From Eledone cirrhosa (lineage: Eukaryota): 64,000 bases of DNA. The notes under the pieces are model-generated. The model saw only the letters and a program-made list of their open reading frames with translations. It was not told the DNA's origin and made no database searches. Positions within the stretch are counted from its first letter, which is position 1; the number at the start of each line of letters is the position of its first letter. A program made the position numbers and the translations under genes. Where the stretch lies: assembly GCA_964016885.1 (NCBI GenBank), contig OZ024743.1, positions 300,328,001 to 300,392,000 of the forward strand. Reading direction: 5' to 3'. Of the stretch, positions 3,021-41,381 are shown one piece after another.

Positions 3021-6000
3021 ATATTGAAAAGATAACAAGGACGATTGGTTACTCCTGTATTACATTTATTGGTATGTGATGCGCGTTATGCCACTGATCA
3101 CCTCAAGGTTCGATCTGTATCGATCTTACCCGATTCAATAATCAGAAGCTCGACGGACCCCTTAAAATGCTAGTAGAAAATGAATACATGCTATATGATA
3201 AAGTCAGAAGTTCATATGTTGGTCAATAAGGCTAGTTTTGATTGTTTGAATAGATCATAGGCGTGTTTTCGCTTGTAGGGTATGTCAGGGGTGGATGTGA
3301 TGATAAGATGGTGGTGACAGTCGCAGGCTGAGGTGGGCTGTGGTGTGAGGTTGATGGATTGTCGGTAGACAGATTCACGTGTATTTGTGGCTGATTATTG
3401 TGTGTGGTGTGGGTGTGGTGTTTAAAGGTGGTGTGGTGGATGTGTTGGTGGTGTCAAATACAATGAGGAGATACATACCTAGACGTTGTATACATAGACC
3501 TGCGTATATACAGACTGACATATATACACATGCACACACACACAAACATACACACATATATACACATACACACATATATACATATACACATGTGTGTGTG
3601 TGTATATAGAGAGAGGGAGATGCGTAGAGCATAGATAGCGGGAGGGGAAGTGCCAATGGTGTTTGCGTTGTACATATAAATATACATATATACACATGTA
3701 TATATACATACCTACACACAGACACACACACTTGTGTTGTTTAGGGAGGGAAAGTATGTGTTGGCGATGTTAATGATGTTAATGATTGTTGGAGTATGGA
3801 GATGTGCCGAGTGGTGGCGGTGGTGGTGTGCACAGTATATTTACAGGATCGAATTTAACGAATGATTGTAGATTAAAACAGACAGAGAGAACATGGGGGA
3901 ACAAGGTTGTGGGTGTGGGATGGTAGACATATAGCAATGTGTGCAGTGTTGGTGGGGGAGGTGGTGGTGCCGATGGGGTGATATGATCAACATTATATTT
4001 ACAGGATCGGATGCTACAATGGATTGCAAGTGATCTGGGACCTCAAGGTAAATATAATGTCGATCATATCGCCCGATAGCCACCACCACCACCGCCACCA
4101 CCAACACCGCAAACATCGCTATATGTCTACCATCCGCCACCCACAACCTTGTTCCCCCATGTTCCCTCTGTATGTTTTAATCTACAATCATTCGTTAAAT
4201 TCGATCCTGTAAATATACTGTGCACACACCACCACCGCCACCACTACATACAATTCATTAACATCATTAACATCGCCAACACATACTTTCCCTCCCTAAA
4301 CAACGCAAGTGTGTGTGTCTGTGTGTAGGTATGAATATATATATATATATATTAGAATGATCGAGTATCGAAAAATCGGCGCACGAGTTCACGATAAACA
4401 AAATTCGAAATGAGCGGCAGAGGGCTCAATAATTCAGATGAATCAGAGCTATAACTATCGTTAAAATACCGTCACACATAGAACAAGTCTAAAATCAACC
4501 ATACGATAAAAATCGATAATAGAAGATTCGGGACAATCAGATAAAAAATATTAATAAAACAATACATCAATAATTTAAATGAATGTAAAATCATACCCGG
4601 ACCCACTAGAAAGGTGTTAAATCTAGCTTCTTGGGTTTCTGTAAATCCTTAGACTGTACTCTATCAGCTCACATATAAATATATAAGACTTCTAGAGCAA
4701 GCGGACTGGAAGTTTACTTCTTCAACGAGCTTCGTCCTAGCGGATAAGAGGCTAACTACAAGCAAAATACGCACATGGAATCCGGCAAGGGAGATAACCT
4801 CTACATCCGCGAAAACTATTCGAGGAAATGTGGAAATACACATATCGAATAAAAGTGCTCAATAGACATGTTGAAATAAAACAGGAGCTATTCATCACTC
4901 AATAGAATCGACAAAAAATGAGCAATAAAATTAACTGGTGGGTAGCTATGTCCAGAGCTAAAAATATTAGAATGATCGAGTATCGAAAAATTGGCGCACG
5001 AGTTCATGATAAACAAAATTCGAAATGAGCGGCAGAGGGCTCAATAATTCAGATGAATCAGAGCTATAACTATCGTTAAAATACCGTCACACATAGAACA
5101 AGTCTAAAATCAACCATACGATAAAAAATCGATATATACAATGAGGAGATACATACCTAGTCACACTTGGTATGCCAAAGACGTTGTATACATACACATG
5201 CGTATATAAAACACTAACATATATACACATACACACACATACGCACACACACATACATTCACATATATACATATACACACATATATATACACATGTGTGA
5301 GTGTGTCTATATATAGAGAGAGGGGGAGACGTAGATCATAGATAGAAGGAGGGGGAGAGCCAATGGAGATGGTGTTGTACATATAAAGATACATATATAC
5401 ACATGTATATTTATATATATGCTCTACGACTCCCCCTCTCTCTATATATAGCCACACACACACATGTGTATATATATGTGCGTATATGTATATATGTGTA
5501 TGTGTGTGTGTGTGTGTGTGTGTGTGTGTGTGTATATGTTAGTGTTTATATACGCATGTATATGTATACAACGTATTTGGCAGACTAAGTGTGTCTAGGT
5601 ATGTATCTCCCCACTGTATTTGACACCACCCACACAATCACCAAACTTTCATTACCACAAACAACAACGCCACACCCACACACACACAATACACGCGAAT
5701 CTGTCTACCGACAATCCATCAACCTCACACCACAGCCCACCTTAGCCTACGACCGTCACCACCATCTTATCATCACATCCACCTCCCATACCCTACAGGC
5801 GAAAACACGCCTATGATCTATTCCACCAATGAAAACAAGCCTTATTGACCAACATATGAACTTCTGACTTTATCATATAGCCTGTATTCATTTTCTACTA
5901 GCATTTAAAGGGGTCCGTCGAGCTGCGGATTATTGAATCGGGTAAGATCGATACAGATCGTACCTTGAGGTGATCAGTGGCATAACGCGTGTCACCTACC

Positions 6001-6138
6001 AATAAATGTAATAAAGGAGTAACCAATCGTCCTTGTTATCTTTTCAATATAATACACTCTACACCTCGACACAGAAGTGATCCTAAACATCGAGTGCTCA
6101 CCCGGGTGAACCTAGGGTAACTCCAAGTTTCACTCACT
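3021..6138. mobile_element. Large foldback element (arms ~3021-4001 and ~4048-6050, tail 6051-6138), PLE-derived, interrupted by the 615-bp element
   Basis: 3021-3400 is the reverse complement of ~5690-6050, and 3705-4001 of 4048-4335. Related sequence occurs at 38830-39280. Confidence 0.8.
4351..5133. repeat. 1.27 tandem copies of a 615-bp structured non-coding unit
   Basis: 4351-4517 recurs at 4966-5133. The left end abuts (TA)n. Homologous to the 602-bp array. Confidence 0.9.
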
Positions 6139-6239
6139 ATATATATATATATATATATATATATATATATATATATATATATATATATATATACGATATT
6201 AAATAAATGGAAACTATATTTATAAAACCATATTTATTT

Positions 6240-6298
6240 CATTATATATATTTCAGGGATATCATATTAACAATATGCTATGCCTTCCTCAGACAAAA
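6240..6298 (-). ncRNA. Hammerhead-like ribozyme (type I) in 3' pseudo-LTR
   Basis: Minus strand reads CTGAGGA-agg...catatt gtt aatatg...cct-GAAA-tata-TA, with a palindromic minimal stem III. Stem I register is imperfect. Confidence 0.7.
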
Positions 6299-38829: not shown

Positions 38830-39280
38830 AATAAAATAATAATACAAGGACGAATGGTTAAGCCTTCATTACTTTTATTGGATTCTGTCATTATTACAAC
38901 AGAGTTGCGATGAGCCTTTGATGCCAGTGTCGAGCCTGATCGATACAGATCGAACTGTGAGCTGATCAATAGCGAAACGCGCAATACCAACCAATAAACG
39001 TAATGAAGGATTAGAGGGTCGGACGCCATGCCTTGCCGCATAGAGTTACGGCACTTTCCATTCTGAGTTCAAATACCGCCGAAGTTAACTTTGCCTTTCA
39101 TCCTTACGGGGTCGATAAAATGAAGTACCAGTAATACACTGGCTAACTGCTGGCCTTGTGACAAAGGTAGAAACAATTATTATATTACACTCTCTAACTT
39201 TACACCTCGATAATGACGTGAACCTAAACACCGAATGCTAACCTGCATGAACCTACAGTAACTTCGCGTTACATTCCCTG
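38830..39280. mobile_element. Mini-element related to the 3021-6138 terminus, split by a SINE
   Basis: Shares acaaggacga..ggtta, gatcgatacagatcg, accaataaa.gtaat and the tail tacacctcga...cctaaaca.cga.tgct with 5945-6125. Confidence 0.7.
39011..39180 (+). mobile_element. Same SINE
   Basis: gagttcaaataccgccgaagttaactttgcctttcatccttacggggtcgataaaatgaagtacc. Confidence 0.88.
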
Positions 39281-39470
39281 TATATATATATATATATATA
39301 TATATATATATATATATATATATTTATATATATATTTATATATATATAACGAAGGAAGTGTGGTAAGGAACCAGATGGACCATAACGCAGGGAGTCCAGA
39401 AATAGCCGTCGAAACGGCTTGAGCTCTCCCTATATATATATATATATATATATATATATATATATATATA

Positions 39471-41381
39471 TACAAATATAAATTAGCTAGAATCGTATTT
39501 CGGCTATTGGAAATTAGCGAAAAACAACTTCCGAGATGTGTCGCAAGCGCTCAAAAGATTCTAACAAACCAGAGCTACAACATACGTTAAAAGGCCAAAA
39601 CAGACTAAGACGATGGTTAAACCATTATCCGCACAGCCATAGAAACGACCAAGTAATTCGGGTCAAACAAATAAAACAATGATTGAAAAATTTACCCGGA
39701 CCCCTGGATGGTTGGTGAAAGTACAGCATTTGGGCTTCTGCGACTCCTAAATTAAGTACTGTCCGCTTAGACAAATAATGTTAAGCCTTTGGTAAGATGA
39801 TTGAACAAGGAAGTCACTTTCTCAACAGGTTTTAGTTCAAGTGCCAGGTCAAGGATTGACCGTTACCAATACCCACATGGGGCTGGGCAAGGGAGGCAAC
39901 CCTTATTTTTGGCGGATGAATTCAGTATGTGTGCAAAATTGCAAAATATCACAAAACGAATTAAGTTCTCAACAGAATGGTTTTAAAGTTAACAAAAGCT
40001 ATTCATCAGTCAATAGAATCAAGTAAAAAAATCAAGAAAATTAACTGGTCAATAGCTAGACTCTGGACATTAATACAAATATAATTTGCGAGAATCGTAT
40101 TTTGGCTATTGGAAATTAGCGAAAAACAACTTGCGGGATGTATGACAAGCGCTCAAAAGATTCTAACAAACCAGAGCTACAGCATACGTTAAAATGCCAA
40201 AACACACTGAGACGATGGTTAAACCATTATCCGCACAGCCATAGAAACGATCAAGTAATTCGTGTCAAACAAATAAAACAATGATTGAAAAATTTACCCG
40301 GACCCCTGGATGGTTGGTGAAAGTACAGCATTTGGGCTTCTGCGACTCCTAAATTAAGTACTGTCCGCTTAGACAAATAATGTTAAGCCTTTGGTAAGAT
40401 GATTGAACAAGGAAGTCACTTTCTCAACAGGTTTTAGTTCAAGTGCCAGGTCAAGGATTGACCGTTACCAATACCCACATGGGGCTCGGCAAGGGAGGCA
40501 ACCCTTATTTTTGGCGGATGAATTCAGTATGTGTGCAAAATTGCAAAATATCACAAAACGAATTAAGTTCTCAACAGAATGGTTTTAAAGTTAACAAAAG
40601 CTATTCATCAGTCAATAGAATCAAGTAAAAAAATCAAGAAAATTAACTGGTCAATAGCTAGACTCTGGACATTAATACAAATATAATTTGCGAGAATCGT
40701 ATTTTGGCTATTGGAAATTAGCGAAAAACAACTTGCGGGATGTATGACAAGCGCTCAAAAGATTCTAACAAACCAGAGCTACAGCATACGTTAAAATGCC
40801 AAAACACACGGAGACGATGGTTAAACCATTATCCGCACAGCCATAGAAACGATCAAGTAATTCGGGTCAAACAAATAAAACAATGATTGAAAAATTTACC
40901 CGGACCCCTGGATGGTTGGTGAAAGTCCAGCATTTGGGCTTCTGCGACTCCTAAATTAAGTACTGTCCGCTTAGACAAATAATGTTAAGCCTTTGGTAAG
41001 ATGATTGAACAAGGAAGTCACTTTCTTAACAGGTTTTAGTTCAAGTGCCAGGTCAAGGATTGACCGTTACCAATACCCACATGGGGCTCGGCAAGGGAGG
41101 CAACCCTTATTTTTGGCGGATGAATTCAGTATGTGTGCAAAATTGCAAAATATCACAAAACGAATTAAGTTCTCAACAGAATGGTTTTAAAGTTAACAAA
41201 AGCTATTCATCAGTCAATAGAATCAACTAAAAAAATCAAGAAAATTAACTGGTCAATAGCTAGACTCTGGAGATTAATACAAATAGATGATAAAACAAAG
41301 AAGGCACTTTCTCAACAGGTTTTAGTTCAAGTGCCAGGCCAAGGATTGACCGTTACCAATACCCACGTGGGGCTCGGCAAG
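39471..41381. repeat. Three tandem copies plus a ~95-bp internal fragment of a 602-bp structured non-coding unit
   Basis: TACCCGGACCC occurs at 39693, 40295 and 40897. (TA)n lies on both sides. Confidence 0.95.

Follow-up and report, generated by a model that had tools for sequence, protein, structure and literature searches.

A dispersed family of ~600-nt non-coding tandem repeats in Eledone cirrhosa with a variant type I hammerhead fold, a likely non-autonomous retroelement

We analyzed a 64,000-nt stretch of the genome of Eledone cirrhosa (GenBank assembly GCA_964016885.1, contig OZ024743.1, positions 300,328,001 to 300,392,000 of the forward strand; hereafter the window), in which an initial annotation made from the letters alone had noticed two arrays of an unrecognized ~600-nt structured repeat. 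Our reading, held with considerable confidence, is that these arrays belong to a non-coding tandem family that has, on its minus strand, a variant of the type I hammerhead fold that is enlarged and pseudoknotted, and that the family likely spreads as a non-autonomous retroelement, that is, a non-LTR (lacking long terminal repeats) retrozyme. The mobilizing enzyme is probably Penelope-like and would copy it by target-primed reverse transcription. Apparently new are the size of the unit, its enlarged hammerhead and its conserved non-catalytic domains, as well as the one-armed insertions and a helix downstream of the ribozyme that is predicted to switch it off. We found no description of the family in the literature searched, which excluded most subscription papers as well as Repbase and Dfam.

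Results and Discussion

Two arrays of one repeat family

Both arrays are real, with units of 615 bp (subfamily A, u1) and 602 to 603 bp (subfamily B, u2). The u1 array consists of one full unit and a 168-nt partial, and the u2 array of three full units and a 97-nt piece equivalent to unit positions 325 to 421 (Table 1), which likely arose by a template jump. A displaced piece of unit positions ~325 to 424 ends two independent subfamily B insertions, this one and one at another locus (L026). The u1 and u2 units are 59 to 62% identical and clearly homologous, with a global alignment score of 417 compared to 190 ± 13 (maximum, 225) in 100 dinucleotide shuffles. The motif blocks listed in the initial annotation occur in the order it gave, and the hairpin at 4886-4947 lies where it had been placed. 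Translation of both units in tandem revealed no open reading frame (ORF) on either strand, the longest stop-free runs being 70 and 73 amino acids (aa) on the plus strand, in agreement with the stops noted initially in the plus-strand frames that had been translated, and 64 and 48 aa on the minus strand. Comparison with Rfam, which had been suggested as a check, gave no match at gathering score in the window and only TA-repeat or chance-level matches at E≤10.

The host genome is a TA-rich animal genome of 3.0 Gb. Genome searches with the two units returned 3,894 and 2,055 first-look candidates, of which ~40 were scored for each unit, so that these figures are not copy numbers. A pattern built on stem III and the cut site described below had 5,202 exact matches in the genome and a second pattern 784, compared to none for the reversed control in either case. 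Copies are dispersed over thousands of loci, mostly of 0.5 to 2 units, and are not bounded by LTRs. From the fetched loci we recovered 147 distinct full units, which form 17 clusters at 56 to 94% identity. Mean divergence inside clusters of at least three units ranges from 1.1% to 7.6%, values that are biased low by best-hit sampling, the loci being mostly best BLAST matches; this spread suggests that the activity of the family has been both old and recent. Subfamily A is young, with a mean divergence of 1.4 to 1.6% among its best copies. Loci L092 to L105 proved to be another repeat and were excluded from all counts.

A search with a short-stem-II pattern yielded a further subfamily, family J, with a 651-nt unit that is 49 to 56% identical to the other subfamilies. 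Parts of the unit are also present in sequence runs labelled as three other organisms, and one 470-nt contig from these runs has an A at core position 8, giving the U3-A8 form discussed below. Pattern scans of viral contigs and of metagenome contigs gave four loci each, none with a profile match; the former lie within coding DNA and the latter were treated as chance.

A type I hammerhead variant fold on the minus strand

The initial annotation had stated that no hammerhead can be built in the repeat. This holds for the literal CTGANGA/GAAA string but not for the fold, as each of the full units in the window has a type I hammerhead variant fold on its minus strand. The helices follow the type I order (stem I, core, stem II, GAAA, stem III, NUH, stem I), and the most conserved minus-strand blocks are, in sequence, the 5' strand of stem I, UUGAN(A/G)A, N, stem II, A, GAA, ACCC...GGGU, C and CGGGU. 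The core UUGAN(A/G)A thus has a U3-A8 or U3·G8 combination, with an N·A mismatch above stem II and a GUC cleavage site; stem II spans ~78 nt and stem III ~35 nt. Self-cleavage of the minus-strand RNA is predicted from this fold.

Conservation across the family falls on the positions expected of a catalytic hammerhead core. Among 17 diverged copies, U4, G5, A6, A9, G12, A13, A14, U16.1 and C17 are invariant, and A15.1 is present in all except the u2 copy of the window, which has G. The 14 pairs of stems I to III are formed in 94.9% of 237 cells across these copies, compared to 90.1% in shuffles and 16 to 50% in slid controls, with 15 two-sided changes where shuffles gave 4.6. The hammerhead is the minimum free energy structure of the ~142-nt region in seven of eight families and lies within 1.5 kcal/mol of it in the eighth.

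The tertiary contact expected of a type I hammerhead is represented by a covarying pseudoknot, a 4- to 7-bp helix that joins the sequence 5' of stem I to an internal loop of stem II in all 17 copies. It takes forms that include GAAC/GUUC, GGAC/GUCC, GGAA/UUCC, GAACUG/CAGUUC and GAACGA/UCGUUC and sits at the homologous place in 16 copies, the best helix of one singleton lying a few bases away; in the pseudoknot scan, a control window scored equally or nearly so in two families. Two of the helices noted initially are parts of this fold: ggac/gtcc versus ttgaac/gttcaa is the pseudoknot, and ctaga/tctag versus ctgga/tccag is distal stem III. The structure was initially read on the plus strand, and the evidence mostly favors the minus strand. 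Family J retains the core, the stems and the pseudoknot, with the 3' strand of stem I changed to CAGGU.

A total of 126 of the 147 full units could be parsed as hammerheads. Positions 3 and 8 are U-A in 88 of these, U·G in 36 and C-A in 2, with an alternative register possible for the U·G group. The canonical R10.1-Y11.1 pair after A9 is replaced by an A·A or C·A mismatch, and the pair beneath it is G-C in 123 of the 126; the same 1x1 mismatch pattern occurs in other hammerheads of this genome. Core position 15.1 is G in each of the three u2 units, one of which (40675-41276) has in addition an A at position 5, and thus the u2 copies are likely impaired; no hammerhead forms when the u2 region is folded. 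This core damage, together with the U3 start and the long stems, probably explains why the hammerhead was missed initially. A minus-strand CTGATGA in u2 was considered as a core and rejected, as it sits in the terminal hairpin and varies among copies (GTGATGA, CTGATTA and CTGCCGA). By eye, no motif of group I or II introns, RNase P/MRP, telomerase RNA, hepatitis delta virus (HDV), twister, pistol or hatchet ribozymes, or selenocysteine insertion sequence (SECIS) elements fitted the conserved blocks.

Some of these features have natural precedents. The U3-A8 core is natural and reported to be active (PMC3088659) and occurs in hammerheads of Schistosoma Penelope-like elements (PMC4209133), a U·U mismatch at 10.1/11.1 has been reported in natural hammerheads, and a pseudoknot is a known type of tertiary contact (PMC3088659). 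The suggestion of an uncharacterized ribozyme is not borne out: the part that looks catalytic is a variant hammerhead, on the strand opposite to the one proposed.

The functional strand and other conserved structures

Most evidence favors the minus strand as the functional RNA. Consensus folding (alifold) beats shuffles on both strands, with z scores of -14.6 for minus and -10.5 for plus (12 column shuffles, a null that ignores relatedness), and the u1 ribozyme region has a z score of -2.1 on minus compared to -0.45 on plus. In family J, the folding energy is -197.5 kcal/mol on minus versus -130.8 kcal/mol on plus, and an 18-bp helix holding five G·U pairs exists on the minus strand only. A scan for the core plus stem II in 12 families found the identical minus-strand site in 10, compared to one weak match on the plus strand.

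Outside the ribozyme, the unit has a conserved 5' domain and a second bulged hairpin (Table 1), whose inner helix is the top covarying helix in a scan for ungapped helices. A CUC/GAG block beside a 2-nt bulge is common to this hairpin and to the closing helix of the 5' domain, and both are retained in family J. These two bulged helices may be bound by the reverse transcriptase, and the conserved non-catalytic domains as a whole may be a ribonucleoprotein scaffold. A CAYGTG motif lies 40 to 54 nt upstream of the core in all 12 families, with no covarying partner seen among them; it resembles an E-box and may be a promoter element.

Table 1. Features of the ~600-nt repeat family in the window (positions are those of the 64,000-nt stretch)
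Feature	Position	Strand	Remarks
Full 615-nt unit (u1), subfamily A	4351..4965	-	Minus strand taken as the RNA; fixed 3' end at 4351, adjoining (TA)n
5'-truncated partial unit, 168 nt	4966..5134	-	Variable end of the u1 insertion
Variant type I hammerhead fold of u1	4595..4737	-	Predicted cut between 4600 and 4599
u1 pseudoknot	4737-4734 (5' strand), 4706-4703 (3' strand)	-	3' strand within stem II
u1 stem I	4730-4726, 4599-4595	-	Paired strands
u1 core UUGAAGA	4725-4719	-	U3·G8; extra A at 4718
u1 stem II	4717-4641	-	Extra A at 4640; GAA at 4639-4637
u1 stem III	4636-4633, 4604-4601	-	Paired strands; C17 at 4600
Conserved 5' domain	4857..4958	-	Bulged closing helix (CUC/GAG, 2-nt bulge) and long hairpin (4886-4947)
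Second bulged hairpin (GCUC...GAGC)	4424..4449	-	Motif identical to the 5' closing helix
CAYGTG motif	4772..4777	-	
Downstream UCCCG	4529..4533	-	Potential partner of the stem I 3' strand in the predicted off-switch helix
Three 602- to 603-nt units (u2), subfamily B	39470..41276	-	Cores at 39825-39819, 40427-40421, 41029-41023
u2 predicted cuts	39699/39698, 40301/40300, 40903/40902	-	
Extra piece, unit positions 325-421	41285..41381	-	At the u2 variable end, followed by (TA)n

Insertions with one fixed end in TA repeats

Array starts are shared among copies rather than random, as the initial annotation had held from the two arrays beside (TA)n. Among 155 distinct insertions with both ends inside the fetched locus, 148 start within the first 8 unit positions, and the common start recurs in 48 of 53 in a less biased, pattern-derived subset. 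The other end is variable, with insertion lengths from 0.14 to 4 units, and by a strict 14-nt criterion the flank is TA-rich on the left in 117 and on the right in 101 of the 155 insertions. Within TA microhomology the position of the start varies by a few bases. Such sliding would be expected of reverse transcription primed by a (TA)n 3' end annealed to the RNA, in which case the minus strand would be the template and its 3' end the fixed one. As an internal control, CTGANGA...GAAA in a 310-bp repeat and in three Penelope-like elements of the window lies, by eye, on the strand reading toward the fixed end. The repeat thus shares with Penelope-type elements 5'-truncated partial tandems, a fixed 3' end and a microsatellite target. 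In the 196 loci with matches (partly overlapping), we found no inverted truncated arm or second fixed end; matches fell on both strands in four of these loci, none of them arranged as such an arm. Penelope-like elements often have such an arm or second fixed end, although it is not required of them.

The variable ends are unevenly placed relative to the predicted cut. Among 112 multi-unit insertions, 74 end on its 3' side (~40% of the unit) and 38 on its 5' side, and close to the cut 36 fall within 45 nt on the 3' side versus 11 within 46 nt on the 5' side. In family J, 9 of 35 aligned 5' ends lie 4 to 32 nt 3' of the predicted site. This pile-up fits copying that halts at a cleaved 5' end. 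Family J has a TA/TG microsatellite-like hairpin inside the unit just 3' of the predicted cut (L248:1600-1750), and other subfamilies carry an A/T-rich loop of variable length at this place.

Arrays, junctions and folding of the circle

An indel within 4 nt of the predicted cut site is found in only 1 of 113 copies, and thus the units are joined seamlessly (in 112 of 113 copies). In the youngest subfamily, all four arrays examined consist of units that are identical or nearly so, with as many as 17 per array, and in one insertion between TA repeats 16 of 16 spacings and units are identical. We had also considered that U3·G8 arrays derive from multimeric circles, an idea that was dropped as the 6-unit periodicity of one array fails in its first two units.

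When the whole circle was folded, the 3' strand of stem I paired downstream in 11 of 12 families, in 7 of them with an NCCCG sequence (UCCCG in u1). We predict from these folds that this downstream pairing is the off state of the circle.

Proposed mechanism

The initial proposal of a mobile structured RNA copied in the manner of a retrozyme gains support from the fixed and variable ends, the (TA)n target, the seamless tandem units and the conserved structure. For other retrozymes, cleavage, circles and ligation by RtcB have been shown, and copying of the circles by the reverse transcriptase of Penelope-like elements has been proposed (PMC7229834). We hypothesize that multi-unit loci are transcribed on the minus strand and that the hammerhead would cut at GUC during transcription to release monomers of 570 to 650 nt, which a host ligase would close into circles. 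In the circle, the downstream NCCCG helix would sequester the 3' strand of stem I, leaving the ribozyme inactive. An autonomous element, most likely a Penelope-like one, would supply the endonuclease/reverse transcriptase that nicks (TA)n. The DNA 3' end would then anneal to the single-stranded, U/A-rich stretch that links the last hairpin to the 5' domain, and from there the circle would be copied from under one to 17 times. The points at which copying halts would vary, with a preference for positions just short of the cleavage site, and the end would be joined in (TA)n.

A more far-reaching picture, which we offer tentatively as a possibility, is that the family forms a distinct clade of large retroelements with circular RNA, old yet still active, and that selection acts on the entire 600-nt fold. 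Its members would unite a pseudoknotted hammerhead that is active in the monomer and evades standard descriptors, an off-switch helix in the circle, two copies of a bulged helix for recruiting the reverse transcriptase, a single-stranded linker for priming in the manner of telomerase, and one-armed writing by an enzyme other than that of the genome's two-armed retrozymes.

If the family cleaves, thousands of such animal hammerheads escape Rfam and CUGANGA-based searches, and counts of retrozymes would accordingly be too low and some "hammerhead-less" calls for Penelope-like elements premature. The natural covariation over ~50% divergence is a resource on what the core tolerates, both for U3-A8 versus U3·G8 and for the 10.1/11.1 mismatch. 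How animal retrozyme circles avoid re-cleavage was left as a question in PMC7229834, and the off-switch helix is a concrete proposed answer. The fixed priming site and the long identical arrays make rolling-circle reverse transcription directly testable.

Weighing the alternatives

Several observations weigh against the retrozyme interpretation. The core deviates from consensus twice, at the 3/8 pair and in the N·A mismatch at 10.1/11.1, and the young subfamily A carries U3·G8, for which cleavage is predicted only. Twenty-one of the 147 units failed to parse, and two of the five measures in the stem-pairing covariation test did not beat shuffles. Whole-circle partition functions, in a model without the pseudoknot, give stem I a probability of ≤0.02 in all 12 families, and in nascent fragments under the same model it is 0.00 to 0.75 with 20 nt of upstream sequence and ≤0.15 with 60 nt; the predicted off-state pairing equally argues against easy folding of the active form. 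The peak of variable ends overlaps the A/T-rich loop, a possible attractor of microhomology joins, and a subfamily without this loop has only 1 of 8 variable ends in the near-site zone. DNA-level block duplications occur in two older arrays and in the u2 array, and long arrays can be homogenized by assembly. The 4886-4947 terminal hairpin pairs on both strands (15 pairs on minus, 11 on plus), and there is no A-to-G excess, as A-to-I editing would give, on the RNA strand (0.91% versus 0.92%). Finally, no autonomous partner sharing sequence with the family was found by tblastn of the flanks, by comparing the profile with the untranslated regions (UTRs) of the window's Penelope-like elements, or among 50 GIY-YIG loci drawn from 150 scored of 10,596 first-look candidates; the short-stem-II pattern search gave no partner either.

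In one alternative, the hammerhead is catalytically inactive or cuts very slowly and persists as a scaffold for protein binding, with the family a non-autonomous Penelope-like retroposon made from linear read-through transcripts by template jumps rather than from circles. The two core departures, the U3·G8 of a young and abundant subfamily, the disfavored stem I in longer contexts and the 15.1 change common to all three u2 units are all compatible with it, and Naiads, which favor (TA)n, spread although they lack canonical hammerheads (PMC8557442). We nevertheless judge this account unlikely, as the invariant positions are the catalytic ones, the pseudoknot covaries, variable ends accumulate at the predicted cut, and the 16 of 16 identical seamless units suit a circle better than repeated jumps. 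A fixed start, a variable end and tandem copies are also produced by rolling-circle DNA transposition, and a few helices have additional G·T pairs when read on the plus strand, as might suit a Helitron-like non-autonomous element in which a fixed nick would release the plus strand for joining into TA repeats. Such an element should start with nucleotide precision and be conserved only at its termini; the fixed end here slides several bases on TA microhomology, and conservation is internal and hammerhead shaped on the minus strand, which leaves this origin very improbable.

We give still less credence to two other explanations. The plus-strand RNA with a new ribozyme class, envisaged initially, can appeal to a plus strand that folds well above its shuffled null and to the lack of an Rfam match, yet the minus-strand hammerhead and hairpins account for almost all conserved blocks, and both the core-plus-stem-II scan and the G·U-rich helix of family J point to the minus strand. 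An ordinary satellite amplified through DNA recombination could produce arrays of up to 17 units and the block duplications of older arrays, but hardly thousands of dispersed short loci with one fixed end, a (TA)n target and a covarying RNA structure; the fixed ends of 148 of 155 insertions largely refute it already. A non-LTR retrozyme remains our preferred reading.

Relation to known systems

At the sequence level, the canonical 10.1-11.1 pair excepted, the family has what defines non-LTR retrozymes, namely, non-coding tandem units each with a type I hammerhead fold, whose activity is here predicted, in dispersed mobile copies without LTRs. The metazoan non-LTR retrozymes of coral, mussel and axolotl (PMC7229834, 10.64898/2026.07.22.740005) are likewise low-GC non-coding tandem units with one type I hammerhead each, arranged as dimers to long multimers, with co-occurring Penelope-like elements and no LTR, primer-binding site or polypurine tract seen. 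The units of our family are longer, at 570 to 650 nt versus 170 to 400 nt in tested metazoan retrozyme circles, although consensus lengths in the 2026 preprint range from 51 to 972 bp (10.64898/2026.07.22.740005). The family further differs in its U3-A8 or U3·G8 core with an N·A mismatch, in a stem III that is a stable ~35-nt arm rather than 1 to 2 bp, in its ~78-nt stem II, in a tertiary contact made by a pseudoknot and in having no discernible target-site duplication; its cleavage and circles are predicted only. The canonical and minimal type I descriptors used in that preprint would likely miss the family.

The hammerheads in the pseudo-LTRs of Penelope-like elements (PMC4209133) share with it the type I topology, U3-A8 covariation and a position upstream of the fixed 3' end. 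The U3-A8 variant is described there for Schistosoma Cercyon elements, and large-helix-III variants for fungi and protists. In contrast to these, the 600-nt family has no ORF and no sequence match to the sampled elements and joins a long helix II, a long helix III and a pseudoknot. Pseudoknot-stabilized hammerheads (bacterial types and human C10orf118/RECK; PMC3088659) have a base-paired pseudoknot from the stem I side to stem II and in some natural cases tolerate core variants and a 10.1/11.1 mismatch. The family differs from them in being a high-copy mobile tandem repeat and in having an A·A or C·A rather than U·U mismatch. Naiad and other endonuclease-containing (EN+) Penelope-like elements (PMC8557442) share the (TA)n target, 5' truncation, partial tandems and the lack of a discernible target-site duplication, whereas the 600-nt family is non-coding, has one fixed end and shows no inverted truncated arm in the loci surveyed.

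Other elements of the window and genome

A 310-bp tandem repeat at 20191-23283 of the window is two-armed, in contrast to the one-armed 600-nt family: its arms, of 4.3 and 5.7 units and 99% identical, stand back to back and are enclosed by TA repeats. Its CTGAAGA...GAAA core lies on the strand reading to the fixed ends, and a fragment of it occurs at 25828-25916. Pfam named 1 of the 12 window ORFs. A nearly full-length Penelope-like element on the minus strand at 6186-10482 has a reverse transcriptase frame (8271-9887), a GIY-YIG-like frame (7643-8311), pseudo-LTRs that are 97% identical, a hammerhead core with a long stem II and a TA target. Two more Penelope-like elements, at 10560-14700 (minus strand) and 42500-45038 (plus strand), are broken; they have GIY-YIG at the C terminus, and their 3' UTRs contain canonical hammerhead cores. 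Further fragments lie at 90-500, 1487-1870, 48341-48922 and 49519-50163. Fold-back (inverted) repeats are found at 3688-4352, 5136-5619, 3020-3637 with 5414-6051, 24346-24805 and 51551-52036, two of which directly flank the u1 insertion.

Elsewhere in the genome, long-ORF GIY-YIG elements (L314, L315, L323 and L325; frames up to 938 aa) have repeats with a minimal U3-A8 hammerhead (TTGAAAA core). Another TA-inserted repeat (L042, minus strand, ~3076; L092, minus strand, ~3369; L199, plus strand, ~705) carries CUGAUGA-C...A-GAAA with a ~50-nt stem II, a palindromic stem III, a 1x1 mismatch above stem II and a canonical 3-8 pair. Hammerhead-like cores with an 85- to 95-nt stem II occur on the plus strand in unrelated repeats at L030 (~918), L065 (~2621) and L092 (~2169). 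These other flank repeats combine long stems II or 1x1 mismatches with canonical cores. As the single features exist in retroelements of this genome, it is their combination that makes the 600-nt family distinctive. Two further loci, L120 and L165, have ORFs like those of long interspersed nuclear elements (LINEs), one ending in (TAA)n; by eye, they bear no likeness to the ends of the 600-nt family, and they resemble R4/Dong elements.

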